64,000 nt of DNA from Actinomycetota bacterium (GCA_023489275.1 JAMDDD010000006.1:29504-93503), one strand, 5' to 3'. Counted from the stretch's first letter, positions 855 through 58,996 are shown. Program-made: numbers and translations. The notes: generated from the sequence alone by a model not told the origin.

Positions 855-1988
855 TTAACTTTGAACCTTGAACCTTGAGCTTTGAACCAGCTTAAATATT
901 TCATCCGCGATCCTGCCGGCGCCGTCCCGCCGCCCCAGGGAGGCGCTTGCCGCTCCCATTCGCGCGAGACGCTCCCGGTCGCCGAGCAATAACTCAATCC
1001 TTTCCTTCAGGACCGCGCCGGTCAACCCGCTGTCCGGAACGATCTCGGCGGCTCCGGCGGCCGCCATCCACTCCGCGTTCCGGAGCTGGTGGCCGGCCGT
1101 GGCAAACGGATACGGAACCAGCAGCGCCGGCTTGCCCAGCGCCGTCAACTCCTGCACCGAGGCGCCGGAGCGGCCGACAACCAGATCGGCGGCAGCCATC
1201 GCCCGGGGCAAGTCGTTCGTATAGTCTAACAAATGATAATTCTCCGGATCCGCGCCCTGCTCCTGCAAAATGCGGTTTATCATACTGAAATCGCGCTTGC
1301 CGCTGACATGCAGGACCTGGATTTCCAGCCGCTCTTTGCCAAAAGCCCGGGCGCAAGCAAGGTTGATGGAACGGGCTCCGAGGCTGCCGCCGGTCACCAG
1401 CACCACCGGCAAGTCATCCTTAAGCCTGAAAGTCTTTCTGCCCTCCGCTGCAGTCGCCTGAAGCAGCTTCGCCGGCAGCGGCCGGCCCGTGACCAGATAT
1501 CTGCTTCCCTCCCTTCCCGGAATAGCAAAGCTTAAGCAAACGCGCCGCGCCAGGGTGGCCAGCAACCGGTTGGCCAGGCCCATGTAGGAGTCGAGCTCGA
1601 CGATCAGCGCCGGGCGGCGCCCAAGCTCCCAGAGAAGGACCGGCACGGCGCTGACGTAACCGCCGCCGCCCACAACCACATCGGGGCGCCGCCGGCCAAG
1701 AATCCGCGCGCAATCAACCGCCCCCGCGATCAGCGACCAGACGAACAGGAAAACCCTGGGCGACAGGCGCCGCTCAAGACCACGGAGATTGGCCAGGTCA
1801 AGTTCGTAACCGGCAGCCGGCACCAGCTCGGTTTCCAGACCCCGGGGAGTTCCGATAAATGAGACCGAGGCGCCTCTACGCGTGAGCGCGCCGGCGAGAG
1901 CCAGCGCCGGGACCAGATGCCCCGCCGTACCTCCGGCTGCGATTACCACCTTCAATGGCTCTGAATTTTCTGGTGCCGGGTGCGGCAA
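855..1988 (-). CDS. murG: Undecaprenyldiphospho-muramoylpentapeptide beta-N-acetylglucosaminyltransferase
   Basis: 377-aa ORF with the G-loop VVIAAGGTAGHLVPALALA and the C-terminal GRSGASVQELTALGKPALLVPYPFATAGHQLRNAE (GT28/MurG-like). It lies between ftsW and murC. The start is uncertain (TTG at 1955 is an alternative), and the 5' end overlaps the ftsW 3' end. Confidence 0.9.
   Translation of the reverse strand: MPHPAPENSEPLKVVIAAGGTAGHLVPALALAGALTRRGASVSFIGTPRGLETELVPAAGYELDLANLRGLERRLSPRVFLFVWSLIAGAVDCARILGRRRPDVVVGGGGYVSAVPVLLWELGRRPALIVELDSYMGLANRLLATLARRVCLSFAIPGREGSRYLVTGRPLPAKLLQATAAEGRKTFRLKDDLPVVLVTGGSLGARSINLACARAFGKERLEIQVLHVSGKRDFSMINRILQEQGADPENYHLLDYTNDLPRAMAAADLVVGRSGASVQELTALGKPALLVPYPFATAGHQLRNAEWMAAAGAAEIVPDSGLTGAVLKERIELLLGDRERLARMGAASASLGRRDGAGRIADEIFKLVQSSRFKVQS
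859..893. repeat. 7-nt periodic tract T1
   Basis: CTTTGAA|CCTTGAA|CCTTGAG|CTTTGAA|CCAGCTT. It covers the last codons of murG (tail ...SSRFKVQS*). Confidence 0.8.
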
Positions 1989-3180
1989 CGCGACTCCGTG
2001 GATTTATGGCGATGTTTAACAATATTCCGATACTTGCCATAATGACGACAAGATTGCTGCCGCCGTAACTAATGATCGGCAGCGGCACTCCGGTAAGCGG
2101 CATCAGTCCGGTGACGGCGCCGAAATTGACCGCCGCCTGGCTGATCATCAGCGTTGTGATGCCGGCGGCCACGTATTTGGCGAACGGATCACGGCTTTTA
2201 AGAGCAACGCGGTAGCCAACAAAGGCAAACAGCAGGAAGCCGGCGAGCACCGCCAGGACGCCAACAAGCCCCAGTTCCTCGCCGATGATCGCCAGAATCA
2301 TATCTGTATGGTTCTCCGGAAGCCAGTTGAACTTCTGGACGCTGTTGCCGATGCCGACCCCGAAAAGCCCGCCGGAAGCCAGCGCCACCCATGACTGGAT
2401 TACCTGATAACCGGCTCCCTGGGCGTCTTTCCAGGGGTCGAGGAAGGTCGTGATTCGCGCCGCCTGGTGCGGCGATACCAGCACTGAAAGCGCCGCTCCC
2501 ACCCCGCCGGCCATCGCCGGCATCGCTAGCAGGCGCAGCTGCACGCCGCCCACGATCAGCATCGCTCCCAGCGTAATCGCGATGGTGATGGCGGTACCCA
2601 TGTCCGGCTCGATCAGGACCAGTCCGCAGGCGAGCGCCGGCATCGACAGCAGCGGCAGCAGCGTCCGCAGGCTCGTGAACCGGCTCCGCCGCAGCTGCAT
2701 GATCGAAGCCATGTAGAGGATGACCGCCAGCTTGGCCAGCTCCGCCGGCTGCGGCTGGAAGCCGGCGAGGCCCAGACCGATCCAGCGGCGGGCGCCATTT
2801 GTTTTATGCCCGATTCCCGGCAGGAGCACCAGCGCCAGCAGCACCAGGGAGGCCACCATCAGGGCCGGAGCCAGCCGCCGCAGGCGCGTGTAATCAAAGC
2901 GGGCCATGAAAAACATCAGCACCAGGCCCATGACAGCAAAAATCAACTCGCGCTTTAAATAATAGTAACTGTCGTGCTGGCCCAGGAAAGAGCTGCCCCA
3001 GCTGGCGCTAAACACCATGACGACGCCAAAGGCCAGGAGCGCCATCGCCAGCGCCGCCAGCGCCGCGTATTCAAACGCTCCCTGTTGCCGGCGGGGGCGT
3101 TTCTTGCCCGCCGGCGAGGCTTTCTTGCCGGCTTTCCGGTTTACCCGCCGGCCTTGCCGCTGACGAAACCTAGGGCTCAA
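1876..3180 (-). CDS. ftsW: SEDS-family peptidoglycan glycosyltransferase / lipid II flippase FtsW
   Basis: 434-aa multi-TM ORF with a basic N-terminal tail. Motifs: FQPAELAKLAVILY, ENHTDMILAIIGEELGLVG, PLTGVPLPIISYGGSN. Canonical dcw position between murD and murG. Confidence 0.9.
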   Translation of the reverse strand: MSPRFRQRQGRRVNRKAGKKASPAGKKRPRRQQGAFEYAALAALAMALLAFGVVMVFSASWGSSFLGQHDSYYYLKRELIFAVMGLVLMFFMARFDYTRLRRLAPALMVASLVLLALVLLPGIGHKTNGARRWIGLGLAGFQPQPAELAKLAVILYMASIMQLRRSRFTSLRTLLPLLSMPALACGLVLIEPDMGTAITIAITLGAMLIVGGVQLRLLAMPAMAGGVGAALSVLVSPHQAARITTFLDPWKDAQGAGYQVIQSWVALASGGLFGVGIGNSVQKFNWLPENHTDMILAIIGEELGLVGVLAVLAGFLLFAFVGYRVALKSRDPFAKYVAAGITTLMISQAAVNFGAVTGLMPLTGVPLPIISYGGSNLVVIMASIGILLNIAINPRSRVAAPGTRKFRAIEGGNRSRRYGGASGPGAGSRRRAHA

Positions 3181-4768
3181 TCTCCTCCTCGATCATCTGT
3201 TTGACCAGAGATATAAAATGTTCTCCGCGCTCTTCAAAATTGTCATACTGGTCGTAACTGGCGCACGCCGGCGCCAGCAGCACCGTGTCGCCACTGGCGG
3301 CGCTTTCAGCGGCCAGCTTAACGGCGTCTTCCAGGCCGTCCACCATTTCGATCTCCCTGCCGGAGCGTTTAAAGCTGTCCGCGATCTCGCCGGCGGCTTC
3401 CCCGATGGCAATCACCTGTTTCACCCGCCCCGCGGGGGCAGATGCGGCCAGTTGATCAAACGAGCAGCCCTTCGACCGGCCCCCCACAATCAGGTGAATG
3501 CCCGCGTCAAAGGCGGTAAGCGCCTTGACCGCCGCGTCCGCATTGGTGGCCTTCGAGTCATTCACGTATGCAACTCCCCCGGCAACGGCAACCTGCTGGA
3601 GGCGGTGCGGCACCCCGGGAAAGCTTTTCAGGCCGGCCGCTACCTGTTCCGGCGCCAGGCCCAGCGACAGGCAAACTGCCGTTGCGGCCAGCGCGTTTTC
3701 CAGATTGTGTCCGCCCTTCAGCGCCGCCTCCGGCCAGTAAAATACGCGGGTAAAACCTTCAGGGAACCCTTCGCCGCTTCCATCCCCATTCCTGCTTCCG
3801 CTTGTGCGGCGATGCCTGCTTTCATCCAGGGCTGCTCCGGAACCGGTGCCGGCCGCCTCCGCGGGAAATCCCTTCAGGCGCTCCCGCAGCCCCCGGCCGG
3901 CCGCAGCCACGACCTCAAGATCGGCGCTGATCCATCCCGCTTCGGCGCGGACCGCCGGCATCGCGTTCCCGTGAGCGCCCGCGTTGCCGTGAGCGCCCGC
4001 ACTGCCAGACGGCAGAATCCGGTCGCCGGCAAACCAGACGCGGGCCGCCGCCCCCGGCAGGGCGGCCCCGCGCACGGCCTCATCGTTAATGTTAAGGATG
4101 GCGATGTCTTCCGGCCGCTGGCGGGCAAAGATCTTCAGCTTGGCCGCGAAGTATTCCGGCGCTGTCGCATGCCGGTCAAGGTGATCTTCACTCAGGTTTA
4201 GCAGGATGGCCGCCTCCGGCCGGAAGCTGACGCTGTCCTCCAGTTGGAAGCTGGACAGCTCCAGCACCAGAAGCTCGCCGGGGCTGACCTCGCCGACAAG
4301 CGACGAGAGCGCCGTCCCGACGTTTCCGGCCACCCGGCCGCCCCGGCCGGCTCCACGCAGAACATGTCCGATCAGCTCCGTGGTGGTTGTCTTCCCATTC
4401 GTCCCCGTGACCCCGATCACCGGGTTGGAAAGAAAACGCCACGCCAGCTCGACTTCTCCCCAGACGGGAACGCCGCGCCGGCGGGCATTTCGGATCAGCG
4501 GCGCATCCGCGGGCACGCCCGGGCTCTTGACCACCAGGCCGGCGCCCTCAAGCAGGCTGCTGCTCTCAGTGCCCAGATGCAGATCGATCCCTGCCGCCCG
4601 CAGTTCTTCCAGCGCTGCCAGCGCTGCCGGCTCGGCACTGCGGTCACAGACTACAATCCTGATTTGCGGCGCAAAACGCTTGATCATCAGGGACGCCGCC
4701 CGGCCGGACCTGGCGGCTCCTGCCACCACAATCCGGTCAAGCGCCTCTATCTCTGCCGGTACGATCAA
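3170..4768 (-). CDS. murD: UDP-N-acetylmuramoylalanine--D-glutamate ligase (with low-complexity insertion)
   Basis: 532-aa ORF with GVTGTNGKTTTTELIGHVL P-loop, GGHNLENALAATAV and NDSKATNADA motifs. dcw position between mraY and ftsW. It is about 50-80 aa longer than typical MurD because of an insert near 3735-4025. Confidence 0.9.
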   Translation of the reverse strand: MIVPAEIEALDRIVVAGAARSGRAASLMIKRFAPQIRIVVCDRSAEPAALAALEELRAAGIDLHLGTESSSLLEGAGLVVKSPGVPADAPLIRNARRRGVPVWGEVELAWRFLSNPVIGVTGTNGKTTTTELIGHVLRGAGRGGRVAGNVGTALSSLVGEVSPGELLVLELSSFQLEDSVSFRPEAAILLNLSEDHLDRHATAPEYFAAKLKIFARQRPEDIAILNINDEAVRGAALPGAAARVWFAGDRILPSGSAGAHGNAGAHGNAMPAVRAEAGWISADLEVVAAAGRGLRERLKGFPAEAAGTGSGAALDESRHRRTSGSRNGDGSGEGFPEGFTRVFYWPEAALKGGHNLENALAATAVCLSLGLAPEQVAAGLKSFPGVPHRLQQVAVAGGVAYVNDSKATNADAAVKALTAFDAGIHLIVGGRSKGCSFDQLAASAPAGRVKQVIAIGEAAGEIADSFKRSGREIEMVDGLEDAVKLAAESAASGDTVLLAPACASYDQYDNFEERGEHFISLVKQMIEEEIEP

Positions 4769-4807
4769 TTGCGTCCATTATTTGAATTTGTTATATCAGC
4801 TTTCAAG

Positions 4808-4893
4808 ATCCAGCATCCAAAAACCGCATGATCATCCGCATGAAGGGATTTTGATTTTATCCAGCATCCGGATTCCAGCATCTGCCATCCGCC
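4808..4893. repeat. 7-nt periodic tract T2 (two clusters)
   Basis: 4808: ATCCAGC|ATCCAAA|AACCGCA. 4859: ATCCAGC|ATCCGGA|TTCCAGC|ATCTGCC|ATCCGCC. Fills the murD-mraY spacer. Confidence 0.8.
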
Positions 4894-4896: not shown

Positions 4897-5874
4897 TCAG
4901 TGCTTGCCGATTGAGAGATAAAACATGGTGAAACCGGTAGCGGCGAAGATCGCGCCCACGATCCAGAAGCGCATGATTATCTTCGTCTCCGACCATGACA
5001 TCAACTCGAAATGGTGATGCAGCGGCGTCATCAGGAAGACGCGCTTCCGGAATGATTTGAAGCTGAGGACCTGGATGATTACCGAAAGCGCCTCGGCCAC
5101 AAATATGCCACCAATGACAACCAGGAGGATCTCGGTGCGCGTCAGCACCGCCAGGGCGGCGATCGCCCCTCCCAGCCCCAGCGATCCGGTGTCTCCCATA
5201 AAAACCTCCGCTGGAAACGAGTTAAACCAGAGAAAACCGACGCAGGCGCCGCCGATGCAGGCAGAAATAATCCCCAGGTCCGCCTGATTCGTGATGAATG
5301 CGATCGCGGTATAGGTCAGCATGGTGATGGTGACCAGCCCGGCGGCAAGGCCGTCGAGCCCGTCGGTCAGGTTGACCGCGTTGGAGGATCCCACCACGAC
5401 CAGGAAAACTACCAGGAAGTAGCCGAAACCAAGCCGGATCATCGCGTTGCTTAATGGGATCTTGAGCGATTCATGGATTCCGGGAACGTAACGAACCGCC
5501 AGCAGCCCCACGGCCAGGGCCAGAACCAGCTGCAGGCCAAACTTCCCCCGGGCTCTTAAGCCGAGAGAGCGGCGCATCCGGATCTTGGCCACGTCGTCGA
5601 TGAAGCCAATGGCCGCGCAGCCGAGCGCCGTGCCGAGAACCAGCATACCGGCGGCGGTTCGCTCGCTGATGATCAGGAAGGGCACGGTGATGCCGGTCAT
5701 TATCAGAAGACCGCCCAGTGAGGGAATGCCCTTCTTCGTCCGCTGGTGATCCTCCGGGCCCTCCTCGCGGATATGCTGGCCAAACTCGTTGCGCTCAAGA
5801 AAGGCGATGAATTTTGGCCCCAGAAACAGGGTGATCAGCATCGCCGAGATTCCCGAAGCCAGTATCTGAAACAT
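4897..5874 (-). CDS. mraY: Phospho-N-acetylmuramoyl-pentapeptide transferase
   Basis: 325-aa polytopic ORF with motifs GFIDDVAKIRMRRSLGL, NAVNLTDGLDGLA, MGDTGSLGLGG and LHHHFEL. Confidence 0.95.
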   Translation of the reverse strand: MFQILASGISAMLITLFLGPKFIAFLERNEFGQHIREEGPEDHQRTKKGIPSLGGLLIMTGITVPFLIISERTAAGMLVLGTALGCAAIGFIDDVAKIRMRRSLGLRARGKFGLQLVLALAVGLLAVRYVPGIHESLKIPLSNAMIRLGFGYFLVVFLVVVGSSNAVNLTDGLDGLAAGLVTITMLTYTAIAFITNQADLGIISACIGGACVGFLWFNSFPAEVFMGDTGSLGLGGAIAALAVLTRTEILLVVIGGIFVAEALSVIIQVLSFKSFRKRVFLMTPLHHHFELMSWSETKIIMRFWIVGAIFAATGFTMFYLSIGKH

Positions 5875-7370: not shown

Positions 7371-7803
7371 TTTTTCCAACGAATAACTTTTAAGATGATT
7401 CTTGATTGAATTTGCCTTCAGAGGCTTTGTGATCCCGCTAACCTGACAATCTATATCCACATACCCGCGTCGCCGATGTTCGCATCCCCTTTCCCGCCGC
7501 AATTCCCAGCTGCTGCCAAGCGGGCGCCGGAAACCAGGTCACGGTGCTGCCCGGCAGGATCACGGCAGAACCCCAAACCTTGCCCATCGGAACCGACCAT
7601 GACGGTAGCAGCTCAGGCCAGAATCTTGGGTTTTGGGGATGGTAGACTGCGGTGGCCAGCAGGCCATCGAGAAGGGTGAAGTAGTAATCCGCCTTCATCG
7701 GAGAGTCATTGTATGAGAGAGGCGCGCCAATTGCCACCCGCGGGATCGGGAGCCACCCCCGGCAGATTTATGCTGCCGTGGCCGGCCGCGAAGGGCATGG
7801 ACC

Positions 7804-7906
7804 GGATGCTGGACACTGGATACAGGATTTTGGCTGGACCAAAACTTTAATCCTGTTAAATTGAATGTCAACATCCTAAGTCTGGACCCAGTATCCACTG
7901 TCCTTT
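7804..7906. repeat. 7-nt periodic tract T3 (inverted arms)
   Basis: Arm 1: GGATGCT|GGACACT|GGATACA|GGATTTT|GGCTGGA. Arm 2, from 7873, in the opposite sense: ATCCTAA|GTCTGGA|CCCAGT|ATCCACT|GTCCTTT. Directly downstream of the ftsI stop. Confidence 0.7.
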
Positions 7907-9583
7907 TTAAGGCGTAATCCTCATCTTGTCCAGCGAAAACTGCATGATCTTTTGAAACGCCGGCGCCGCCACGGTGCTGCCACCGCCAAACGGGTGAGGA
8001 TCATCCACCTTCACCACAATCAGCAGTTGCGGATCATCTGCGGGAGCGTAGCCCGCGAACGTGCCGATGTAGTCGCTGTTGGAGTATTTGCCGTCCACGA
8101 TCTTCTGGGCCGTTCCGGTCTTCCCGGCCACCTGATAACCTTCGATCTGTGCCTCTGGGGCTCCGGCGGGATTATTGACAACCTGGGTGAAATAAGCCGT
8201 CATCTGATCCGCGATCGCCTGGCTGATGATCCGGTGCCCCGGCTGGACCGGAGTCTTCCGGTTGCCGATGCGCTCGACCAGATGCGGCGAAACCGTGACG
8301 CCGCCGTTGGCGACCGCGGCGTAGGCGGCCGCCAGTTGCAAGGGCGTTACCGTGATCCCCTGCCCGATGGGAATGTTGCCAATTGTAGATCCGGTCCATT
8401 GATCCGTCGGCGGCATGTTGCCGGTAGCCTCGCCGGGAAAATCAATTCCTGTCCGGGAGAGAAACCCGAACCGGTTAATCCAGCCGGCGAGCCGGTCTTT
8501 TCCCAGCATCATGCCGATGGTGTCGGTGCCGATGTTGCTGGAATGCACCAGGATCTTTCCCAGGTCCCAATCGACCGGCCCCCGGCTGACCGCGTCTTCG
8601 ATGGTATAGCCGCCGAGATCCAGGGTGGGAGGAAGATGAAAGACCTGTCCCGGTCTGACGACGCCGTCTTCAAGGCTGCCGGAGGCGGTGACAATTTTAA
8701 AGACGGAGCCGGGTTCGTAGGTGTCCACCACCGGCCGGTTTCGGCGCTGCTCGTCCGAGAGCTGGTTGAAATCGTTGGCGTTCACCGTCGGGACGCTGGC
8801 CATGGCATAAATGGCGCCGGTCCTGGGATTCATCACCACGGCTTCGGCTCCCTTGGCTTTCCACTGCTTGACCGTGTTGGTGAGAACTTTCTCGGTTTCA
8901 AACTGGATTGACTGATCCAGTGTCAGCCAGACGTCGGTCCCGGGCACCCCTTCCGTCAGGCTGATGGTCTGGATCTGGCTGCCGTCCGCCGCGGTGACAA
9001 CTCTTTGCCGGCCGGGGGTGCCTTTCAGAACGCTGTCCAGCTTAAGCTCCATGCCAGCCAGGCCGGTGTTATCGGTGCCGGCATAACCGATAACTTGCGC
9101 CGCCAACTGATTCTGGGGATAGACGCGCTTCTCTTCCGGCCGTGTCTCGATCCCGGAAATATGGTTGTCTTTCACCAATTGATCAACCTGATTGCCGGCG
9201 GACTCGTCAATCTTCCGGGCTAGATAGACAAAACCCGAATTCTTGTTAGCCGTAATCTCGTTTGCCAGCGTTGCCGGGTCGGTTTTCAGGAGGGGGGCAA
9301 GCAGGCTGGCGATCTTCCAGGGGTCTTTAATCAGCAGCGGATCGGCAACAACGCTCTTGACCGCGACGCCGACGGCAAGCTCGTTGCCGCTGCGGTCGAA
9401 AATAGTGCCACGGTGCGCCGGCGTGTCAATTTCTTCCACGTGATGCATGTCAACCCGGCTGGAAATCTCCTTGGCGTCGACGGTCTGGAGAAAAGCAGCC
9501 TTCGCGGCAACACCGATAAAAAAGATCACAAAAAAGAGGAGAGTCCAGCGGATCCGTTTGTTTGGATCTCCCATCACCGGCAT
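7907..9583 (-). CDS. ftsI: Class B penicillin-binding protein / peptidoglycan D,D-transpeptidase FtsI
   Basis: 558-aa ORF with an N-terminal TM anchor (WTLLFFVIFFIGVAAKAAF) and transpeptidase motifs SVFK (SxxK), HSSN (SxN) and KTGT. dcw position after ftsL. Confidence 0.9.
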   Translation of the reverse strand: MPVMGDPNKRIRWTLLFFVIFFIGVAAKAAFLQTVDAKEISSRVDMHHVEEIDTPAHRGTIFDRSGNELAVGVAVKSVVADPLLIKDPWKIASLLAPLLKTDPATLANEITANKNSGFVYLARKIDESAGNQVDQLVKDNHISGIETRPEEKRVYPQNQLAAQVIGYAGTDNTGLAGMELKLDSVLKGTPGRQRVVTAADGSQIQTISLTEGVPGTDVWLTLDQSIQFETEKVLTNTVKQWKAKGAEAVVMNPRTGAIYAMASVPTVNANDFNQLSDEQRRNRPVVDTYEPGSVFKIVTASGSLEDGVVRPGQVFHLPPTLDLGGYTIEDAVSRGPVDWDLGKILVHSSNIGTDTIGMMLGKDRLAGWINRFGFLSRTGIDFPGEATGNMPPTDQWTGSTIGNIPIGQGITVTPLQLAAAYAAVANGGVTVSPHLVERIGNRKTPVQPGHRIISQAIADQMTAYFTQVVNNPAGAPEAQIEGYQVAGKTGTAQKIVDGKYSNSDYIGTFAGYAPADDPQLLIVVKVDDPHPFGGGSTVAAPAFQKIMQFSLDKMRITP

Positions 9584-14090: not shown

Positions 14091-14100
14091 AAAACCTCTG

Positions 14101-14135
14101 GTTCAAAGCTCCAGGTTCAGAGTCCAAAGCTTCGC
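14101..14135. repeat. 7-nt periodic tract T4
   Basis: GTTCAAA|GCTCCAG|GTTCAGA|GTCCAAA|GCTTCGC, between the pilD start and the MBL stop. Confidence 0.75.
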
Positions 14136-14936: not shown

Positions 14937-14964
14937 TAACCGGAAACTTTAAACCGGAAACTTT
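14937..14964. repeat. 7/14-nt periodic tract T5
   Basis: TAACCGGAAACTTT|AAACCGGAAACTTT, directly 3' of the flxA-like stop. Confidence 0.75.
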
Positions 14965-18176: not shown

Positions 18177-18284
18177 TGATCCTTTAGTCCAAAGTTAAAT
18201 CTTCGCTTCGCCCAGAATGACAAATCGAGATACATTTAAGTGAGTTAGGATGTCCATTTTTTCAATAATTGGTTGACAGGTTTT

Positions 18285-18305
18285 CAACTTGGAACTTGGA
18301 ACTAT
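18285..18305. repeat. 7-nt periodic tract T6
   Basis: CAACTTG|GAACTTG|GAACTAT, overlapping the hdrA stop codon. Confidence 0.65.
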
Positions 18306-20338
18306 CTTAGTACTTCCACCACTTCCGCAATCAGTTGATTGTCAGTGTATCCTTTTAATGATATAACTCCGGGCGGGCAGGCGACGTTGCAGAGGCCGCA
18401 ACCCTGGCAGAGTGAGGCAATCACGTGCGCAACTTGTCCGCCCATCGCATCCTGATTCTCGATGGCTCCGTAAGGGCAGACATCCCGGCATTTAAAACAG
18501 CCGGTGCACTTCAGCTGATTGACCTCCGCCACCATCGGGCTCGTCTCGATTTCTTCCCGGGAAAGCAGCCCGATGACCTTTGCCGCCGCCGCGCCAGCCT
18601 GCGCCACGGAAGCCGGAATGTCTTTCGGTCCCTGGCAGGCGCCGGCGAGAAAGACGCCGCCGGTGTTCGTCTCCACCGGCTTCAGCTTCGGGTGGCCTTC
18701 CGCCATGAACCCCTGGCCATCAGTGGAAATGTTCAGCCGCCGCGCCAGCCCGCCGGCGCCCTCGGCGGGCGTCAACCCGGTCGCCAGCACCACCAGATCT
18801 GCCTCAATCTCAACCTGGTCGCCGGCCAGCGTGTCTGTGCCCATCACCACCAGTTTGCCGCCGCGGGGATAGATCTTGCCGACGCGTCCCCTGATATAGA
18901 TAGCGCCAAAGTCTGTCTGGGCCCGGCGGGCGAACTCGTCATATCCCTTGCCGGCGGCGCGGACGTCGATATAAAAAATATAAGACTGCGAATCTGGAAT
19001 GTGCTCTTTTGTTAAAATTGCCTGTTTGGCCATATACATGCAGCCGATGCTGCAGCACTGCGGCCGGCCCACTGACTCGTCCCGCGATCCGATGCAGGAG
19101 ATAAAAACGATATCGCGGGGCTCCTTGCCGTCGGAGGGCCGCTCGATGTGGCCGCCGGTAGGACCGGAGGCCGACAGCAGCCGCTCATACTTGAGAGCGT
19201 TAATTACGTCCGGGTACATGCCCATGCCGTAAGTCGGATATGACTGCTTCCAGTCATAGAGGCCAAAGCCGGTGGCGACAACCACGGCGCCAAACTTTTC
19301 CGTCACCACCGTATCTTCCTGCCCGTAGTCGATAGCGTCCGCCGGACAGACTTTCTGGCAAACGCTGCACTTGCCACTGATAAACAGGCGGCAGTACTCC
19401 TTGCGGAGACTGGCCACCAGCGGCACCGCCTGGGGGAACGGGATCGAGATCGCCTTCGATTCGCCGGCGCAGGCGTTAAAGTCATCCGGCGCCTTGCTGG
19501 GACATTTCTCCTGGCAGATCAGGCAGCCGGTGCATTTCTCCTCGATGACGCAGCTTGCCTTTTTTCTGATATCAATCTCAAAGTTGCCAATATATCCCCG
19601 CACTTTTTCAACCTCAGAATTGACCATCAGCTTGATGTTCTCATGCTGCTTCACCTCCACCATCCGGGGAGTCAGGATGCAGGAAGAGCAATCCAGGGTG
19701 GGAAAGGTCTTGTCCAGCCGGGCCATATTGCCGCCGATGGTGGGGCTTTTCTCCACCAGCGTCACCGGGATGCCGGCATCGGCAATGTCGAGCGCCGCCT
19801 GGATGCCGGCGACGCCCGCGCCAATCACCAGCGCCCGCCGGGCCACCGGCGAGCTGCCGGGCTGAAGCGGCTTCTGCCGCCGCACCCGGGCAACGCCTTT
19901 GCGCACCAGATCAATTGCCTTTTCCGTGGTCTCGTCGATGCCGGAGTGAATCCAGGAGCACTGCTCCCGAATATTGACCATCTCCAGCATGAACGGGTTC
20001 ATGCCGGCGCGGCCGATCGCCCGCCGGAAAGTAATCTCATGCATTCTCGGCGAGCAGCCTGCCATCACCACGCGGGTGAGCCCCTTCTGCTGGATGGCGT
20101 CGATAATCGCCCGCTGCCCGGGATCGGAGCATGTGTACTGAATGCTTTCGGCATGGACGACGCCCAGCATTGATTTTGCCGCCTGCACCACCCTGTCGGT
20201 AGAGACGGTGGCGGCGATATTGGTCCCGCACTGGCAGACGAAGACGCCAATCATGCTGATCCTGGACTCTGGCTGCTGGATTCCGGATAACCCAAAACCC
20301 AGTTTCTGGTATTTTGCCAACTCATTTCTGTCTTCCAA
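18302..20338 (-). CDS. hdrA: Heterodisulfide reductase subunit A-like flavoprotein
   Basis: 678-aa ORF with FAD motif VIGAGVAGIQAALDIADAG and several ferredoxin-type CxxCxxCxxxCP clusters (CTGCLICQEKCP, CSVCQKVCP, CTGCFKCRDVCP, CQGCGLCNVACP). Confidence 0.9.
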   Translation of the reverse strand: MEDRNELAKYQKLGFGLSGIQQPESRISMIGVFVCQCGTNIAATVSTDRVVQAAKSMLGVVHAESIQYTCSDPGQRAIIDAIQQKGLTRVVMAGCSPRMHEITFRRAIGRAGMNPFMLEMVNIREQCSWIHSGIDETTEKAIDLVRKGVARVRRQKPLQPGSSPVARRALVIGAGVAGIQAALDIADAGIPVTLVEKSPTIGGNMARLDKTFPTLDCSSCILTPRMVEVKQHENIKLMVNSEVEKVRGYIGNFEIDIRKKASCVIEEKCTGCLICQEKCPSKAPDDFNACAGESKAISIPFPQAVPLVASLRKEYCRLFISGKCSVCQKVCPADAIDYGQEDTVVTEKFGAVVVATGFGLYDWKQSYPTYGMGMYPDVINALKYERLLSASGPTGGHIERPSDGKEPRDIVFISCIGSRDESVGRPQCCSIGCMYMAKQAILTKEHIPDSQSYIFYIDVRAAGKGYDEFARRAQTDFGAIYIRGRVGKIYPRGGKLVVMGTDTLAGDQVEIEADLVVLATGLTPAEGAGGLARRLNISTDGQGFMAEGHPKLKPVETNTGGVFLAGACQGPKDIPASVAQAGAAAAKVIGLLSREEIETSPMVAEVNQLKCTGCFKCRDVCPYGAIENQDAMGGQVAHVIASLCQGCGLCNVACPPGVISLKGYTDNQLIAEVVEVLR

Positions 20339-20355
20339 AGAATGTCTGTAAGTCT

Positions 20356-21228
20356 TTATCCGGCATCTAGCATCCAGCGTCCAAAATCCGTCGTGGCGTG
20401 CTGATCGATGCCCAGTTCGGCGGGGAGATGGCCCAGCGCCAGGCCGATCACCTGCGTGAAATACAGAACCGGCAGATGGTAATCGGTGCCGTAGGCGGCA
20501 TTAATCTGGCCCTGTCGCAGCTCCAGGTTCTGATGACATAAGGGACACACCGTCACCAGCGCGTCAATTCCGCATTCGAGCGCCACCTCAATAATGCGCT
20601 TGCTTGCCTGGAGCACCATTTCTTTCTTGGCCAGCCCCATGTAGGAGCCGCAACACTCGGTCTTGAAAGGAAAGTGAGGCGTGGCCGCCCCCGTCGCGTT
20701 CAGCAGCGGCTCCATCTTCACCGGATTATTGGGGTCGTCGTACCTGACAACTTCCGGCGGCCGCACCAGCACGCAACCATAGTATGTCCCCAGACTCAAC
20801 CCGGACAGGCGGCGCTGCACCCGCTCCGACAGATCACCCGGAGCAATCTCCCTGTTTAACAACTGGATGACATTTAACACTTCTGTTTGATAACGGACCG
20901 CCTCGCCCAGCGCCGCGCCGGTCCGCTCTCTCAGCTCCGGGTTTCGCTCCAGCTCAAACTGCGCGTACTTGAGCCGGTTGTAACAGCCGGCGCAGGGCGC
21001 CACTACCGAAGGATGGCCGGCGCCGGCAATATGCAGGTTGCGCGCCGGCAGCAGGATGCCCAGCTCACCCCCCCAATGATGGGGCGCGGGCGAGGCGCCG
21101 CAACAGTTCCAGTCGGTCAGCTCGTCCAGGCCGATGCCGAAAGCATTCGCCACCAGCCGGAAGGAGACGTCGTACTCGGCGGCGCTACTGGTAAGGGAAC
21201 AGCCGGGAAAGTAGGAATAGGCCGTCAT
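20356..21228 (-). CDS. hdrB: Heterodisulfide reductase subunit B-like (two CCG domains)
   Basis: 290-aa ORF with CCG motifs NCCGASP and ECCGSYMG. The last ~12 codons run through a heptamer tract. Confidence 0.85.
   Translation of the reverse strand: MTAYSYFPGCSLTSSAAEYDVSFRLVANAFGIGLDELTDWNCCGASPAPHHWGGELGILLPARNLHIAGAGHPSVVAPCAGCYNRLKYAQFELERNPELRERTGAALGEAVRYQTEVLNVIQLLNREIAPGDLSERVQRRLSGLSLGTYYGCVLVRPPEVVRYDDPNNPVKMEPLLNATGAATPHFPFKTECCGSYMGLAKKEMVLQASKRIIEVALECGIDALVTVCPLCHQNLELRQGQINAAYGTDYHLPVLYFTQVIGLALGHLPAELGIDQHATTDFGRWMLDAG
20358..20392. repeat. 7-nt periodic tract T7
   Basis: ATCCGGC|ATCTAGC|ATCCAGC|GTCCAAA|ATCCGTC, translated as the hdrB C-terminal tail (...GRWMLDAG*). Confidence 0.8.
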
Positions 21229-21235: not shown

Positions 21236-21805
21236 TCACCTCGGCGGCCCGGCGCTGCCGTTGACCTGCTGGAAGAGACGCCTGACCTGGCGCAGGTTTT
21301 TTATCCTGGGCGGGAAAATGCGCACCTTTTTCTTTCGTAGCAGCAACGGGGCCAGGGAGAGGTCATTTGTCAGCTTGCCAGTTCGTAAATTGAACCATAA
21401 AAGCAGGGTAGTCTCGTGCAGCCGTCCGTGCCGGCAGACATTATTGAGAAAGCCACGGCGGAAAAGGCGCAGGTTGGGCTCCGTATCCCGCAGCCCCGCC
21501 TCATCGGCGATGGCCTTGGCGGTTTCAATGACTCCGGCGACATCGATTTTCACCGGGCAGCGCATCGAGCAGGTCATGCAATCAAGACACAGCTGTGCCG
21601 TCTCGGACCGGAGTACTTCCTCAACCAGTCCGATCTGAAGCAAGTGCATCAACCGGTGCGGCGGATAATCGAAAGCAAAGGCTGCCACGCAGGTGGAGGT
21701 GCAGCGTCCGCACTGGAGGCAGGCAGTGATTCTTTGCCCGCTGCGGCGCTCGATCTCGGCAACGACGGCTGCGCCTTCTTTGACAGTTTGGGAGAGATTT
21801 ATCAC
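21236..21805 (-). CDS. hdrC: Heterodisulfide reductase subunit C-like
   Basis: 189-aa ORF (GTG start) with two cluster motifs: CLQCGRCTSTC and CLDCMTCSMRCP. Confidence 0.85.
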   Translation of the reverse strand: MINLSQTVKEGAAVVAEIERRSGQRITACLQCGRCTSTCVAAFAFDYPPHRLMHLLQIGLVEEVLRSETAQLCLDCMTCSMRCPVKIDVAGVIETAKAIADEAGLRDTEPNLRLFRRGFLNNVCRHGRLHETTLLLWFNLRTGKLTNDLSLAPLLLRKKKVRIFPPRIKNLRQVRRLFQQVNGSAGPPR

Positions 21806-21823
21806 TGTTCCTCCCTTTTAAAG

Positions 21824-21917
21824 CAAGTTTCTGGTTTCCAGTTTCCGTTTGCTGGTTGCCGGCCTCTATACCAAAGAACCGGAAACAGGCAGCCGGAAAC
21901 TAAAAACTGGAACTAAA
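21824..21917. repeat. 7-nt periodic tract T8 (inverted arms)
   Basis: Arm 1: CAAGTTT|CTGGTTT|CCAGTTT|CCGTTTG|CTGGTTG|CCGGCCT. Arm 2, from 21876: GAACCGG|AAACAGG|CAGCCGG|AAACTAA|AAACTGG|AACTAAA. CCAGTTT and AAACTGG are reverse complements. Confidence 0.8.
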
Positions 21918-22070
21918 AAGCCCGCCGGCGCCAATGTCTCTTTGCCAACCAGAGGCAGGCCGTCGAGCTGGAATTTGCTTTTTCGCGGCGTTCGCGGCTT
22001 CCCGTCCCTGAGAATCCGCTCACGAACTTGTGAAAAAAATAACAGGAGCTTAGAATTTTAGCAGGACCCT

Positions 22071-25130: not shown

Positions 25131-25143
25131 ATATGAAACTTTT

Positions 25144-25208
25144 GTTTCCAGTTAAAATCACGATACTCAGAACCAGAAACCAGAAACTGGAAACCGGAAA
25201 CTCGTAAC
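25144..25208. repeat. 7-nt periodic tract T9
   Basis: CAGAAC|CAGAAAC|CAGAAAC|TGGAAAC|CGGAAAC|TCGTAAC from 25168. GTTTCCAGTT (25144-25153) is the exact inverted partner of AACTGGAAAC (25185-25194). Confidence 0.8.
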
Positions 25209-28816: not shown

Positions 28817-28849
28817 AAAAAAGCCACGGGAAAGCGTTGCTCCCGTGGC
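28817..28849 (-). terminator. Rho-independent terminator in the rpsO-pnp spacer
   Basis: The minus strand reads GCCACGGGAgcaacgcttTCCCGTGGC followed by TTTTTT: a 9-bp perfect stem with a U6 tail. Confidence 0.6.
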
Positions 28850-28851
28850 CT

Positions 28852-28928
28852 GCTCTAGGCTTAAGGCTCAAAATCCGTCATCATGGCGAAAAATACCACC
28901 GGCGGATTCTCAGCCTCAGGCCTAGAGC
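28852..28928 (-). promoter_or_regulatory. Long imperfect stem-loop (candidate RNase III / PNPase autoregulatory hairpin)
   Basis: Nested pairings found by hand: GCTCTAGGC/GCCTAGAGC (9 bp), GGCT/AGCC and AATCCG/CGGATT. It lies immediately 5' of the terminator on the rpsO-pnp transcript. Confidence 0.4.
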
Positions 28929-29193
28929 TGCTTTGTTGGGGACACGGTTAGCAGCTTTTGCTAAAGCAGAGTCAGAAAAGCGAATCGTTGGCGGGTCGTT
29001 GAAGACATCAGGCAGGACCAGAACTTGAATCTGCCTCAAAATCACATTCTGCTGCGTCACGTCGCGACGAACAACGTTTGAGTCAGATTTCCGGGATCAG
29101 ACAGAGGCGCAAAGCGGCCGCGTGAGCTTGGATAGCGGTTCCGGCGCGGGGCCAACCGTCAGCCGCCTCCCCACGGTCTTCAGGACCACCCCT

Positions 29194-32723: not shown

Positions 32724-32726
32724 AAA

Positions 32727-32761
32727 CAAGTTCAAAGTTTGAAGTTTCTTGTTGCTGGTTT
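32727..32761. repeat. 7-nt periodic tract T10
   Basis: CAAGTTC|AAAGTTT|GAAGTTT|CTTGTTG|CTGGTTT, 3 nt after the kinase stop. It can fold as AACAAG..TTCAAAgTTTGAA..CTTGTT. Confidence 0.75.
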
Positions 32762-41079: not shown

Positions 41080-41674
41080 TTGATATCAATTATACTCCTG
41101 GTAATCAAATTGAATCCGGTTTACCGCACGAAGGAAGAATATCAGAATCAAGCAAGGAAGTGGGGCAGGCTCCGCTGCCGGATGAATCTTACAGCCGGCA
41201 GGGCCGGACCGGCATCTTAAACAGCCGTCGTACCAGGCCGGTCCGATACGGGGCAGGTACACTTCACTGCCGGCGAAATCAGTAACAGACACCGGGCCGG
41301 GCCGATTTTGATCCGGCCAGACTTGACTCCGCTGCCGGCGAAATGTGCCCTGGAGCTCCCGGCAGGTAATTCGTTTCAAGGCAAGCGAACCGGCTACAAA
41401 ACCGGATAATGGATATTGGTGCTGGGAGTTGACATTAGGTTATACAAGATAAAGGTTAATGGTCTTGAACTTGCTCAGGAAGCGCCCGAGCATGGTCATG
41501 CCGAGGCAGCGTTCGGGATGACAGTTTTCGTTATCCTGAGCCAATAGAATGATTAGTCAATTGAATGAGCATATATGGACCTCCCGTCAAGAGACTCCCG
41601 GCAGAGTGGATCTGGATTGCACCCATACATCCGGCTTGGCGGAGGAGTCCATTTCATCAGTTAAATTTTGGTTT

Positions 41675-41695
41675 ATCCAAAATCCAGAATCCAAA
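41675..41695. repeat. 7-nt periodic tract T11
   Basis: ATCCAAA|ATCCAGA|ATCCAAA, just 3' of the beta-propeller gene stop. Confidence 0.7.
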
Positions 41696-41707
41696 TCTGC
41701 TTTATTG

Positions 41708-46345: not shown

Positions 46346-46348
46346 TTT

Positions 46349-46765
<417 letters not shown>

Positions 46766-48652: not shown

Positions 48653-48756
48653 TCTTGCTCATCCTCCACCTCCGGGAGTCGCCGGCGTGGGAGAAATGAC
48701 GAGGTGGGGAACCTCGTGAGTGAATATATCAGATGAGGCGGACGGAAAACCAATCA
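48653..48756 (-). repeat. Copy 1 of ~105-nt direct repeat (structured 5' leader with RBS and ATGAGCAAG start)
   Basis: About 90 percent identical to 49567-49675. Shared core: ctccacctccgggagtcgccggcgtgggagaaatgacgaggYggggaacctcgtgagtgaatatatcaRatg..gcggacggaaa. Confidence 0.85.
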
Positions 48757-48793: not shown

Positions 48794-49156
48794 TTAACCA
48801 ACCGCCCGCTTACGAGCAGTATTTGTCCGGCGCGTTCCGCGCCGGGAAGCTGGCACTAGTTTAATTTCTACCTCGCACCCGACAGCTTGCGCATACTTCT
48901 TAAGAGTAGTCACGGATGGGGAAAGTTTTCCGGCGGCCTCCAATCTCGATACCGCGCTTTTAGTTGTTCCCATCCTCTCCGCAACCGCTTCTTGAGTCAG
49001 GCCCGCTTCCGACCGGGCACGGAGAAGTTCGCTGACAAGGGAATATTTGTCCGCCAGCTCATCGTGCGCCTCTTTGAAACCAGCACGCTTTTGAGCCTTC
49101 CTGAGAAATTTCTCATGGTCATGACGCGCGGGGCGATATTTGAGATCGTCAGCCAT
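48794..49156 (-). CDS. higA: XRE-family HTH antitoxin (HigA-like)
   Basis: 120-aa ORF with HTH LTQEAVAERMGTTKSAVSRLE. 8-nt overlap with the upstream toxin gene. Confidence 0.75.
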   Translation of the reverse strand: MADDLKYRPARHDHEKFLRKAQKRAGFKEAHDELADKYSLVSELLRARSEAGLTQEAVAERMGTTKSAVSRLEAAGKLSPSVTTLKKYAQAVGCEVEIKLVPASRRGTRRTNTARKRAVG

Positions 49157-49566: not shown

Positions 49567-49675
49567 GCTTGCTCATTATGCTCCACCTCCGGGAGTCGCC
49601 GGCGTGGGAGAAATGACGAGGCGGGGAACCTCGTGAGTGAATATATCAAATGCAGCGGACGGAAATCCTCAATCA
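49567..49675 (-). repeat. Copy 2 of ~105-nt direct repeat
   Basis: See copy 1. Here the conserved ATGAGCAAG opens a 32-codon sORF (MSKQQSYQARNHHSGQRLAFEAMGNMLAYMLT) that ends just before higB. Confidence 0.85.
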
Positions 49676-52560: not shown

Positions 52561-52621
52561 CTGAGGCAGGGCGCAGGACTTTGGATATTTGACATTTGAT
52601 TACATAGACTGTTCTTTGCTA

Positions 52622-52656
52622 TTTCCAAATCCAGTATCCGGGATCCATTATCCGCT
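52622..52656. repeat. 7-nt periodic tract T12
   Basis: TTTCCAA|ATCCAGT|ATCCGGG|ATCCATT|ATCCGCT, in the divergent spacer upstream of the MFS gene. Confidence 0.8.
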
Positions 52657-54006: not shown

Positions 54007-54028
54007 TACAGAAACCAAGCGCTGGCTC

Positions 54029-54049
54029 ACGGTTTCCTGTTTCCGGTTT
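54029..54049. repeat. 7-nt periodic tract T13
   Basis: ACGGTTT|CCTGTTT|CCGGTTT, between the MFS stop and the queD start. Confidence 0.6.
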
Positions 54050-54125
54050 TGAAAAAATAAACGGGAAACTCATTGGCGCCGCCGGTTGCGGTACAATCTT
54101 TTTAGCAAATCGACCGCGGTGTTTT

Positions 54126-55603: not shown

Positions 55604-55653
55604 GAAATTCGGGCAACGTTTAATGCTTAATGTTTTACCTTTGATCATGAAAG

Positions 55654-56274: not shown

Positions 56275-56278
56275 AACC

Positions 56279-56350
56279 ATGGTTGCCAGTTTCCAGCTTC
56301 GAGTTTCTAGTTAAAACTTTATTCCGGTCAACCCGGAAACCAGCAACCGG
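56279..56350. repeat. 7-nt periodic tract T14 (inverted arms)
   Basis: ATGGTTG|CCAGTTT|CCAGCTT|CGAGTTT|CTAGTTA|AAACTTT, then AACCCGG|AAACCAG|CAACCGG. Starts 5 nt after the queE stop. Confidence 0.75.
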
Positions 56351-56440
56351 GATTTATCGTTATCTGGTCATAAATTAGACAAACAGGCTGCCACCGGCGG
56401 CAAAGCAATAAGCGGCGAAGGGATTGAGCCGGTTGGTCTG

Positions 56441-57869: not shown

Positions 57870-57984
57870 CAGCGCCAGATGACCGGGGGAATCTTCGGTT
57901 TCACTGCCTGGGGCGGTGGCGATCAGACGGAAGCCACGCGGGCATTTCGAGACGGTAAGGTTTTTTGCCATAATATGAACTGGT

Positions 57985-58659: not shown

Positions 58660-58748
58660 AGCGCCCGTACTGCCCGGCCCCGGCGCGAACGCCCCCCGGG
58701 AACGGGGACGCTCGCGACCTCAACCTGACCAGCTGACTATAACTATAT

Positions 58749-58970
58749 CTAGCTGATAAACACGGCTTGGCTGCTGCAGCGGGCCCGGTGGATATAAGCG
58801 CTGGCGTCATTATCCGGATGGCCGCCAACCGGCCCTTCCAGCTCGTCAAGTTCAGTCTCAACATGCTCCAGCGACAGCCCGGTCGCTTCGCAGATCTCCG
58901 CCAACGGCACCGGCAGATCCTGGTGGGAAATCAGGCAGCAGATTGTGATGTTTTGGGTTTCATCCAGCAT
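58749..58970 (-). CDS. Possible small winged-helix (FeoC-like) protein
   Basis: 73-aa ORF; ...LISHQDLPVPLAEICEATGLSLEHVETELDELEG... looks like a wHTH. The start codon lies inside a heptamer tract. Weak call. Confidence 0.3.
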   Translation of the reverse strand: MLDETQNITICCLISHQDLPVPLAEICEATGLSLEHVETELDELEGPVGGHPDNDASAYIHRARCSSQAVFIS

Positions 58971-58996
58971 CCAGCGTCCAGAATCCAGTATCCGAT
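58962..58996. repeat. 7-nt periodic tract T15
   Basis: ATCCAGC|ATCCAGC|GTCCAGA|ATCCAGT|ATCCGAT, immediately upstream of the pstC Pho box. Confidence 0.85.

Follow-up and report, generated by a model that had tools for sequence, protein, structure and literature searches.

Heptanucleotide arrays in a housekeeping region

We analysed a stretch of 64,000 nucleotides from an Actinomycetota bacterium (GCA_023489275.1, JAMDDD010000006.1:29504-93503), referred to here as the window, in which short tandem arrays of degenerate 7-nt units recur in the spacers between genes. The arrays probably represent a known kind of bacterial microsatellite. The window has a GC content of 59.6% and is a housekeeping region with ordinary gene content: the dcw cluster (murC, murG, ftsW, murD, mraY, murE/F, a penicillin-binding protein (PBP) gene and mraW), a futalosine-pathway mqn cluster, hdrCBA-mvhD with associated Fe-S and flavin subunits, and pnp, ribF, truB, infB, nusA, rimP, queCFE and pst genes. 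The sole match of the window in an Rfam 15 search is the RNase P RNA (bacterial class A, 249 bits) at 46348-46757 on the minus strand. The host belongs to an uncultured, anaerobic Actinomycetota lineage known as metagenome-assembled genomes (MAGs).

Tandem Repeats Finder reported period-7 arrays starting at 857, 18286, 20358, 25171, 54030, 56282 and 58961. In a scan for identity at lag 7, which required 15 or more matches per 21-nt window, 10 tracts were found compared with 0.7 in dinucleotide shuffles, and lags of 4, 5, 8, 10, 11 and 13 yielded 0-2 tracts each; both checks had been proposed with the original prediction of the arrays, and on the window both recover period-7 tracts. When 5 or more of the 7 columns had to be invariant over three successive units, we obtained 11 tracts at period 7 in the whole window and 0-2 at control periods. 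When this column scan was confined to the 33 intergenic segments, each shuffled separately, 8 tracts were observed against 0.14 expected at a stringent threshold and 21 against 2.0 at a relaxed one, with periods 5, 6 and 8-11 at chance level. At the relaxed threshold, 22 of the 34 tracts in the window lie in non-coding DNA, which makes up 15% of its length; 2 more fall on the final codons of murG and hdrB, and the 10 inside genes are GC-rich and look like chance matches.

With repeat-finder additions at 4849-4891, 14098-14129 and 14938-14962, the total is about 23 arrays at about 18 loci, or approximately one per 3 kb, each composed of 3-6 degenerate units. Of the 23 arrays, 17 lie no more than 40 nt from a stop or start codon, and for 12 the distance to a stop codon is at most 11 nt. 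Thus, the original prediction of at least 15 loci with a strict 7-nt period in non-coding DNA near gene boundaries is borne out. The three tracts it quoted are present, at 859 (CTTTGAA CCTTGAA CCTTGAG CTTTGAA), 25174 (CAGAAAC CAGAAAC TGGAAAC CGGAAAC) and 58962 (ATCCAGC ATCCAGC GTCCAGA ATCCAGT ATCCGAT).

The units fall into four groups: A, with the column consensus ATCCAGN and including AAAATCC and ATCCGGC; B, GTTTCYR (reverse complement NNGAAAC); C, GTTCAAR and TTCCAAG; and D, AACGTTT, seen at 55614 and in relatives. Conserved within the units are the cores ATCC, GAAAC and GAAC/TTGAAC, with AACGTT in relatives. Arrays are AT-richer than the genome, ranging from 24 to 66% GC. The families intergrade, as in an arm of a related locus, L001 (ACTGGAT GCTGAAC ACTGAAA ACCGGAA), and in the array at 58945, where GTTTTGG GTTTCAT CCAGCAT CCAGCGT run in a single phase. 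"One loose superfamily" is therefore a fair description. The proposal that all flavours form one superfamily holds in that they intergrade and that inverted pairs have uniform polarity in the alignment on which it was based; the consensus put forward for it, AWCCWKN, is too loose.

Inverted pairs and predicted hairpins

Where two arrays share a spacer they are mostly inverted. A count over five species of neighbouring arrays with less than 130 nt between them gave 9 inverted and 4 direct pairs. The predicted stems extend over 25-35 bp and consist of blocks of 3-10 bp with one mismatch per unit boundary. Folded as sense RNA, the hdrB-hdrA spacer (20250-20395, minus strand) reaches -51.5 kcal/mol, with z = -5.4 relative to shuffles; the hdrC 5' untranslated region (UTR; 21818-21925, minus strand) gives z = -3.8, the region at 7795-7912 (minus strand) z = -2.9 and that at 56276-56352 z = -2.4. 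Roughly half of the arrays stand alone and lack structure.

The suggestion that the arrays are terminators or RNA-processing structures is upheld only in part: the inverted pairs do fold (z = -2.4 to -5.4), but they are not canonical intrinsic terminators. No array overlaps a predicted terminator, and terminator counts in the window are at the level of shuffles. The canonical form, a GC-rich stem-loop followed by a U-tract, was rejected on this ground. At the arrays themselves Rfam 15 gave no family match; within 21780-22100 it gave only weak, generic hairpin (miRNA-precursor) matches.

The junctions of the hdr operon illustrate how closely the arrays adjoin coding sequence. In the hdrB-hdrA hairpin the 5' arm lies on the final codons and stop of hdrB and the 3' arm reaches the hdrA start. 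The true start of hdrA is the ATG at 20254 (MIGVFVCQCG); the open reading frame (ORF) listed from a TTG at 20338 is an array artefact with a 28-codon N-terminal extension. The AGGA Shine-Dalgarno sequence of hdrA is supplied by the last array unit, GTCCAGG. At the hdrA-mvhD junction, the mvhD Shine-Dalgarno sequence has its GGA paired with the UUC that immediately follows the stop codon. The tails of hdrB (20356-20389) and murG (855-889) are array-encoded and are not conserved in relatives. The stop-to-start hairpin between hdrB and hdrA recurs in three other relatives, for a tally of four genomes and three species including the window; in L001 (z = -4.1) and L006 (z = -2.7) its arms and loop differ in sequence. 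The hdrA start in L001 has no Shine-Dalgarno sequence.

Distribution among relatives

Relatives were found by a search for HdrA homologues in species-representative genomes, and loci of about 20 kb were compared. Look-ups of the window's proteins for exact sequence matches returned none. The syntenic loci L001-L009 come from MAGs named "Thermoleophilia bacterium" or "Actinomycetes bacterium". Other HdrA matches were mostly Methanolobus loci with 43-46% identity, and a metagenome scan added almost no further close relatives. Five related species also have the array families: L055 (22 kb aligned with the window at 97.8% nucleotide identity), L001 (approximately 93%), L006 (the same contig as L059 and near-identical to L058), L009 and L061. 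They are absent from the six sister lineages L003/L027, L004/L057/L056, L005, L007, L008 and L060 and from the distant loci, including Methanolobus. In a neighbour-joining tree of seven concatenated proteins, the array-bearing genomes form one group together with the array-poor L002, and the array-free genomes fall outside it.

Array-bearing genomes have spacers of 59-380 nt, with arrays, at the M16-mqnE, mqnC-hdrC, hdrB-hdrA and hdrA-mvhD junctions, whereas the spacers of array-free genomes at M16-mqnE, hdrB-hdrA and hdrA-mvhD measure -19 to 45 nt; the exception is the array-free hdrB-hdrA spacer of L005, at 137 nt. The arrays are therefore clade-specific expansions of originally short spacers. 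Nearly all co-directional spacers of more than 50 nt in the region are long because arrays sit in them. The units differ between genomes even at a shared position: one junction in the hdr region has five perfect GATACTG units in L009 and TTCCAAG units in the window, L001 and L006.

L002, otherwise array-poor, has at its M16-mqnE junction (approximately 5090-5195) a perfect 33-bp hairpin of ACGTTCC/TTTCCTA units; the 143-nt stretch around it folds at -76.9 kcal/mol (z = -8.6).

A scan of IMG/VR found 119 stretches of (ATCCAGN)3 and 61 of (GTTTCCN)3 in viral contigs. Six contigs of 60-66% GC (L233, L198, L217, L073, L235 and L168) carry very dense heptamer arrays, with unit families GGACCAC, CAGTGGA, GTTTCCA, GAACTGA and others, often as inverted pairs between genes. 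In the GC-rich phages L233 and L198 the arrays are about ten times as dense. L233 (IMGVR_UViG_3300050028_000085) has 26 arrays in 13.6 kb, many of them inverted pairs, beside phage genes for a terminase, a Mu-like portal and a protease; the portals of the array-rich phage contigs are about 29% identical to those of Arthrobacter and Gordonia phages. The dense arrays in these contigs indicate that the syndrome is broader than the clade and thus favour a phenomenon of a known kind.

Array dynamics

Over the 22 kb aligned between the window and L055 there are 8 indels, five of 1-3 nt and the others of 7, 7 and 14 nt. All three of the longer indels occur in a period-7 context: an extra GTTTCNN unit in L055 after the M16 gene (7 nt), an extra double unit in L055 at 14965 (14 nt) and a two-unit proto-array at 28962 (7 nt). 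Substitutions in the arrays amount to 4.1% (12/294), compared with 4.6% at four-fold sites; first and second codon positions show 1.0%, and the rest of the intergenic DNA 2.4%. At the nucleotide level, the arrays are close to neutral. Given the whole-unit indels and a substitution rate near the synonymous one, the arrays behave as slippage-driven, fast-evolving microsatellites, and the idea that they are slippage-prone spacers agrees with these indels.

Between the window and L001 turnover is nearly complete: flanking genes are 93-95% identical, and the arrays in the same spacers cannot be aligned. Unlike the arrays, a conserved leader in the mqnC-hdrC spacer is nearly identical in the two genomes. 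In that spacer, B-type units seem to arise from local T-tracts after a terminator. Of the substitutions in the hdrA-mvhD arms between the window and L055, 3 of 4 keep pairing; as a test of compensatory change this is uninformative, because all four are single transitions.

Table 1. Arrays and partner arms in the window, with units, gene context and pairing.
Position	Strand	Type and units	Gene context	Pairing, structure, repeat-finder family
852-889	+	C; CTTTGAA/CCTTGAA x5	last ~11 codons and stop of murG (855-1988, -); ends 25 nt before murC start	solo; no predicted structure
4802-4825	+	A; TCCAGCA-type, 3 units	34 nt from murD start	direct partner 4858-4891
4858-4891	+	A; ATCCAGC ATCCGGA TTCCAGC ATCTGCC ATCCG	6 nt after mraY stop	D6
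7800-7829	-	A; plus strand CTGGAYA x4		inverted partner 7870-7908; z -2.9
7870-7908	+	A arm; ATCCTAAGTCTGGACCCAGTATCCACTGTCC	overlaps stop codon of PBP gene (7907-9583, -)	
14098-14129	-	C; sense CTTTGGA CTCTGAA CCTGGAG CTTTGAA CCAG	8 nt before prepilin-peptidase start	I1
14938-14964	-	B; 14-nt double unit, sense AAAGTTTCCGGTTT x2	2 nt after oxidoreductase-gene stop	D10
18184-18200	+	short partner arm; CCAAAGTT...	adjoins mvhD Shine-Dalgarno	pairs with 18281-18306
18281-18306	+	C; sense UAG UUCCAAG UUCCAAG UUGAAAA	begins at hdrA stop codon	
20258-20289	-	A, 3' arm; sense ATCCGGA ATCCAGC AGCCAGA GTCCAGG ATC	ends 4 nt before hdrA ATG	z -5.4
20357-20389	+	A, 5' arm in sense; GGAUUUUGGACGCUGGAUGCUAGAUGCCGGAUAA	encodes last 11 codons and stop of hdrB	
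21823-21862	+	B; GTTTCTG GTTTCCA GTTTCCG TTTGCTG GTTGCCG	hdrC 5' UTR	inverted partner 21876-21915; z -3.8
21876-21915	-	B; plus strand ACCGGAA ACAGGCA GCCGGAA ACTAAAA ACTGGAA		D10
~25140-25152		short partner arm; AACTGGAAAC		partner of 25170-25210
25170-25210	-	B; sense GUUUCCG GUUUCCA GUUUCUG GUUUCUG GUUC	starts at M16 peptidase gene stop	
32725-32749	+	C-like; AAGTTCA AAGTTTG AAGTTTC	2 nt after histidine-kinase stop; convergent spacer	
41399-41419	-	weak A-type; plus strand AACCGGATAATGGATATTGG		distant inverted partner of 41672-41697
41672-41697	+	A; ATCCAAA ATCCAGA ATCCAAA	11 nt from orf701 stop	preceding TTTTGGTTT is a one-unit arm
52576-52601	-	degenerate A-type arm; plus strand TTTGGAT ATTTGAC ATTTGAT	5' UTR of MFS transporter gene	
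52625-52656	+	A; ATCCAGT ATCCGGG ATCCATT ATCCGCT	19 nt before GTG start at 52675	
54027-54052	+	B; GGTTTCCTGTTTCCGGTTTT	21 nt after MFS gene stop	short GAAAC partners on flanks
55614-55638	+	AT-rich, D-like; AACGTTT AATGCTT AATGTTT	between queF and queE	
56282-56313	+	B; GTTGCCA GTTTCCA GCTTCGA GTTTCTA	8 nt after queE stop	z -2.4
56330-56353	-	plus strand AACCCGGAAACCAGCAACCGGG		inverted partner of 56282-56313
58945-58998	+	A with B-like lead-in; GTTTTGG GTTTCAT CCAGCAT CCAGCGT CCAGAAT CCAGTAT CCGATAT	102 nt upstream of pstC	solo; no predicted structure; D6

Other elements in the spacers

Two spacers of the window contain conserved elements of a different character. The mqnC-hdrC spacer (21925-22084, minus strand) has a promoter-like TTGACT-18-TAAAAT, a CTGTTAAAAnnTTCACAAG box and a terminator-like GCTCGACGGCCTGCC...GGCGCCGGCGGGCTTTTT, conserved in all relatives and with no match in Rfam; perhaps it serves the hdrCBA-mvhD operon as leader or attenuator. 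The rpsO-pnp spacer (28821-28880, minus strand) reads GGATTTT GAGCCTT RAGCCTA GAGC, followed by a canonical terminator hairpin GGCCACGGGAG...CCCGTGGCTTTTTT. This element is nearly invariant in L001-L009, L055, L056, L058, L060 and L061, array-free genomes included, and some relatives have an upstream complementary copy. Despite its period-7 score, it is a conserved pnp/rpsO leader or terminator and not a hypervariable array.

Small ORFs lie in the hdrB-hdrA spacer (20255-20326, minus strand; MSWQNTRNWVLGYPESSSQSPGSA) and in the mraY-murD spacer (4765-4882, minus strand), each with an ATGA overlap with the downstream start. Coupling through small ORFs, as in mycobacterial MIRUs, is a weak candidate: the overlap occurs in 2 of 7 spacers, possibly by chance, and its A comes from a conserved Ile codon.

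Two long spacers are explained only in part by the arrays at their ends: that between the PBP gene and murE (7503-7800, about 300 nt), which is long in L060 too, and that between orf701 and a rhomboid gene (41080-41671, 628 nt). A direct repeat of 91 nt (93% identical) occurs at 48661-48751 and 49578-49668, 917 nt apart, its copies flanking an HTH_3 (XRE-type) gene (48794-49156, minus strand) and unannotated ORFs. The RNase P RNA gene of the window has no inserted heptamer array, in contrast to cyanobacterial RNase P RNA genes, which have been reported with insertions of short tandemly repeated repetitive (STRR) elements.

Interpretation of the arrays

The arrays have a 7-nt period, lie between genes, are restricted to a clade, gain and lose whole units, substitute near-neutrally and have the potential to fold; with these observed features they are probably lineage-specific heptanucleotide microsatellites of the long simple sequence repeat (SSR) kind, to which the STRR sequences of cyanobacteria belong. 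The class is already known, since STRR hairpins, heptanucleotide long SSRs and the arrays of Xanthomonas, Beggiatoaceae and Geobacter have been published; what is new here is the lineage, together with its unit sequences and the comparative series. Slipped-strand mispairing, working in steps of 7 nt, would create and maintain the arrays, and their persistence would be mainly mutational rather than due to sequence-specific selection. Because most lie inside operons, most would be transcribed. Hairpins of paired arrays might then act as generic intercistronic stem-loops, which could protect the upstream mRNA segment. At hdrB-hdrA and hdrA-mvhD, where the predicted 5' arm lies on the upstream stop and the 3' arm over the downstream Shine-Dalgarno sequence, initiation could need unwinding by the terminating ribosome, amounting to translational coupling. 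A role of the hairpins in mRNA stability or translational coupling is plausible, as something we infer from the predicted folds; the solo arrays are probably inert spacers.

Several points weigh against a purely mutational origin: (i) Slippage alone does not account for a few unit cores at many loci. (ii) Nor does it account for inverted pairs of one polarity. All 9 of 9 pairs (about 7 loci being independent) read 5' NCTGGAT/GTTTCNN/TTCCAAG ... ATCCAGN/NNGAAAC/CTTGGAA 3', and none has the opposite arrangement. Since both strands of an inverted repeat read alike, the direction of transcription has no bearing on this polarity; the opposite polarity would place a U-rich arm 3' of the stem and so mimic a terminator in both directions. 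(iii) The order of variant units is common to 859-890 and 14098-14129, which are 88% complementary, and also to the arrays at 20348 and 58952. (iv) A TTTTGG(G)TTT lead-in (TTTTGGTTT), which acts as a one-unit 5' arm, precedes A arrays at unrelated loci and in different genomes. The shared unit order and lead-in suggest copying between loci or selection, and together with the polarity they are compatible with a palindromic ancestor having been copied from locus to locus and also with selection against the opposite polarity. (v) Arrays are kept at the same spacers across species whose HdrA is about 75% identical, which is a long persistence for short, imperfect, neutral arrays. (vi) In folding against shuffles, the solo arrays at 58940, 828 and 25131 did no better than the controls, nor did some weak pairs, including those at 52565 and 18177, and every effect at the RNA level is something we infer.

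The alternative that survives best, although we consider it unlikely, is that the inverted pairs are selected cis-regulatory RNAs, stem-loops for differential mRNA stability or processing (RNase III or exonuclease barriers are examples of such roles) or for translational coupling. The significant predicted folds argue for it, as do the excess of inverted over direct pairs (9 to 4) with a single polarity, the placement of 5' arms 0-11 nt from stop codons with 3' arms that cover or abut the Shine-Dalgarno sequence, the retention of the hdrB-hdrA stop-to-start hairpin in three species despite sequence turnover, and the arm substitutions relative to L055, 3 of 4 of which keep pairing. However, the arrays change as fast as synonymous sites and faster than the rest of the intergenic DNA, and their arms expand and decay independently. 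Folds at corresponding junctions are weak in L001 (M16-mqnE, z = -1.9; mqnC-hdrC, z = -1.5) and L006 (M16-mqnE, z = -0.6), the variable unit position is mismatched without covariation, and roughly one array in two is solo and unstructured. Moreover, sister lineages run the same operons with junctions that are array-free and short (mostly below 45 nt) or overlapping.

We attach a smaller probability to the arrays being the cis part of a clade-specific system, either a self-copying foldback element of a new kind with heptamer arms or a set of operon-internal RNA modules. With the foldback version, the single polarity, the common lead-in and the repeated order of units would all be accounted for; in the RNA-module version, a protein with a 7-nt register would tune the relative expression of neighbouring cistrons.

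It is improbable that the arrays derive from, or constitute, a small non-autonomous palindromic element (foldback, MITE or REPIN-like) reshaped by slippage. A single palindromic ancestor would be expected to leave pairs of uniform polarity, the lead-in is common to A arrays at unrelated loci and in different genomes, distant arrays have the same variant-unit order (repeat-finder families I1, I2 and D6), and the spacers are 50-130 nt longer than in array-free relatives. On the other hand, no conserved loop or internal sequence, target-site duplication or recognisable terminal motif was found, and the 64 kb contain no transposase or RAYT-like gene. The comparison with L055 revealed unit-length indels only, with no presence/absence polymorphism of a whole element, and B-type units seem to have grown from local T-tracts after a terminator. 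A REP, BIME or REPIN assignment was rejected as well, there being no conserved 20-40-nt palindromic unit or loop and no transposase-like domain in the window.

Still less probable is that the arrays are sites for an oligomeric nucleic-acid-binding protein with a 7-nt register. Such registers have precedents: omega-type ribbon-helix-helix repressors bind DNA heptads, HutP recognises UAG+4 repeats, and a single cold-shock protein occupies about 7 nt. In favour, every unit keeps a core of 4-5 nt in phase and leaves 2-3 positions free, A arrays present CAG or TAG every 7 nt, and direct and inverted arrangements both occur, as they do in omega heptads. Binding of S1, Csp or CsrA has been proposed for TAACTGA heptamer repeats (PMC4679880). 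The original suggestion of a binding array for a periodic protein nevertheless fits poorly, since the arrays have four or more distinct cores, the solo ones run either with or against transcription, and substitution in the arrays is near-neutral; the positions, too, are intercistronic and 3' rather than at promoters. In a promoter scan of the window no array overlapped a predicted promoter.

Two specific candidates were compared. Omega and other ribbon-helix-helix operators lie in promoter regions and consist of 7-bp heptads without gaps, to which a ribbon-helix-helix dimer binds cooperatively; the arrays resemble them in the 7-bp register with direct and inverted units, but are intercistronic or 3' and not at predicted promoters. 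A HutP site comprises three NAG triplets with 4 non-conserved nt between them, in two blocks within a leader terminator, and goes with a hutP gene. A HutP-type RNA site was rejected, as the conserved positions of the arrays are the supposed spacers and the B, C and D arrays have no NAG periodicity. A CRISPR array was likewise rejected, the arrays being contiguous 7-mers without spacers as against repeats of 23-55 nt with unique spacers of about the same length.

There is next to no probability that the tracts arose by chance, through errors of assembly or by duplication within the region: only the shortness and degeneracy of individual tracts speak for chance, and the explanation is excluded by the shuffle controls and control periods, by the occurrence of the same families at orthologous and other spacers of independently assembled relatives, and by the spread of the arrays over about 18 unrelated loci in 64 kb.

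The heptanucleotide microsatellites described here extend STRR-type repeats to an uncultured, anaerobic, GC-rich actinobacterial clade. They provide a comparative series in which the same operon junctions occur with and without arrays, together with a 98%-identical pair that displays 7-nt slippage. The series could serve to address two long-standing questions, why seven is the favoured unit length of bacterial long SSRs and whether hairpins of heptamer units between cistrons influence mRNA stability or translational coupling. In practical terms, the arrays lengthen spacers and ORFs (the C-terminal tails of HdrB and MurG), the hdrA start is easily mis-called, and the arrays would serve as strain-typing markers in the lineage.

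Comparison with known heptamer systems

REP, BIME and REPIN elements are dispersed, intergenic, located inside operons, and form hairpins that can stabilise mRNA; REP units are palindromes of 20-40 nt moved by RAYT transposases. Mycobacterial MIRUs are actinobacterial intercistronic tandem repeats with units of 46-101 nt, for which translational coupling has been proposed. The arrays resemble both in their dispersed or intercistronic placement within operons and differ in their 7-nt periodicity, which neither has.

Closer parallels are found among heptamer repeats of other bacteria, so that the initial impression of nothing equivalent in a GC-rich Gram-positive-type genome has to be given up in view of the Actinobacteria in a survey of long SSRs (as summarised in PMC4679880) and of the repeats in Xanthomonas and Geobacter (PMC4692102, PMC2700814). 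Geobacter metallireducens has the intergenic heptanucleotide elements GGACCGG and MTYCTGA (PMC2700814), and marine Beggiatoaceae have direct repeats of TAACTGA, with 1 indirect repeat among 170 sets (PMC4679880). As in the window, these arrays comprise 2-6 units, often just upstream of starts and beside housekeeping genes, and a canonical ribosome-binding site is sometimes lacking, as at the hdrA start of L001. The Beggiatoaceae repeats differ in having one dominant unit and arrays that are nearly always direct, with no RNA structure predicted (PMC4679880).

In Xanthomonas, also GC-rich, approximately 180 intergenic heptamer arrays, mostly of about 4 units, lie near start or stop codons, some as inverted pairs, and occur between the same gene pairs in related species with strongly variable length and sequence (PMC4692102). 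The GGGAATC and GGGGAYT arrays of Xanthomonas and Nostoc thus share the placement and some of the inverted pairing seen here. Their units are G-rich and capable of forming G-quadruplexes (PMC4692102), whereas those of the window lack G-runs and are AT-richer than the genome.

PMC4679880 summarises the survey of Mrazek et al. (2007): in most genomes heptanucleotides outnumber every other long SSR, and the ten richest genomes include three Actinobacteria; in that summary and in PMC4692102, slippage is the proposed cause. Long SSRs in this sense (units of 5-11 nt) agree with the arrays in the dominance of heptanucleotides, the intergenic excess, the sporadic occurrence in taxa including Actinobacteria and the likely role of slippage. 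As far as the summarised survey goes, it does not include this lineage, concerns mostly perfect repeats and does not describe paired inverted arrays.

The STRR sequences share with the arrays their tandem 7-nt units, a few families spread over many intergenic sites, restriction to a lineage and location inside operons. Their units in cyanobacteria are CCCCAAT, TTGGTCA and CAACAGT, whereas those found here are ATCCAGN, GTTTCYR and GTTCAAR, in arrays that are short (3-6 units) and degenerate; the host, too, is a set of Actinomycetota MAGs with 60% GC, in another phylum than the heterocystous cyanobacteria. The original analogy with STRR sequences is apt in that inverted arrays form intercistronic hairpins in both (PMC2670836, PMC4692102): hairpins of 7-bp repeats lie between hupS and hupL, where roles in transcript stability or translational coupling have been suggested (PMC2670836). 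An assignment to STRR in the strict sense was rejected, the host not being a heterocystous cyanobacterium and the unit sequences not being STRR1-3. In the broad sense of heptanucleotide long SSRs and STRR sequences, the arrays share several features with the class: an excess of 7-nt tandem repeats at dispersed non-coding loci, polymorphism in steps of the unit length and restriction to a lineage.

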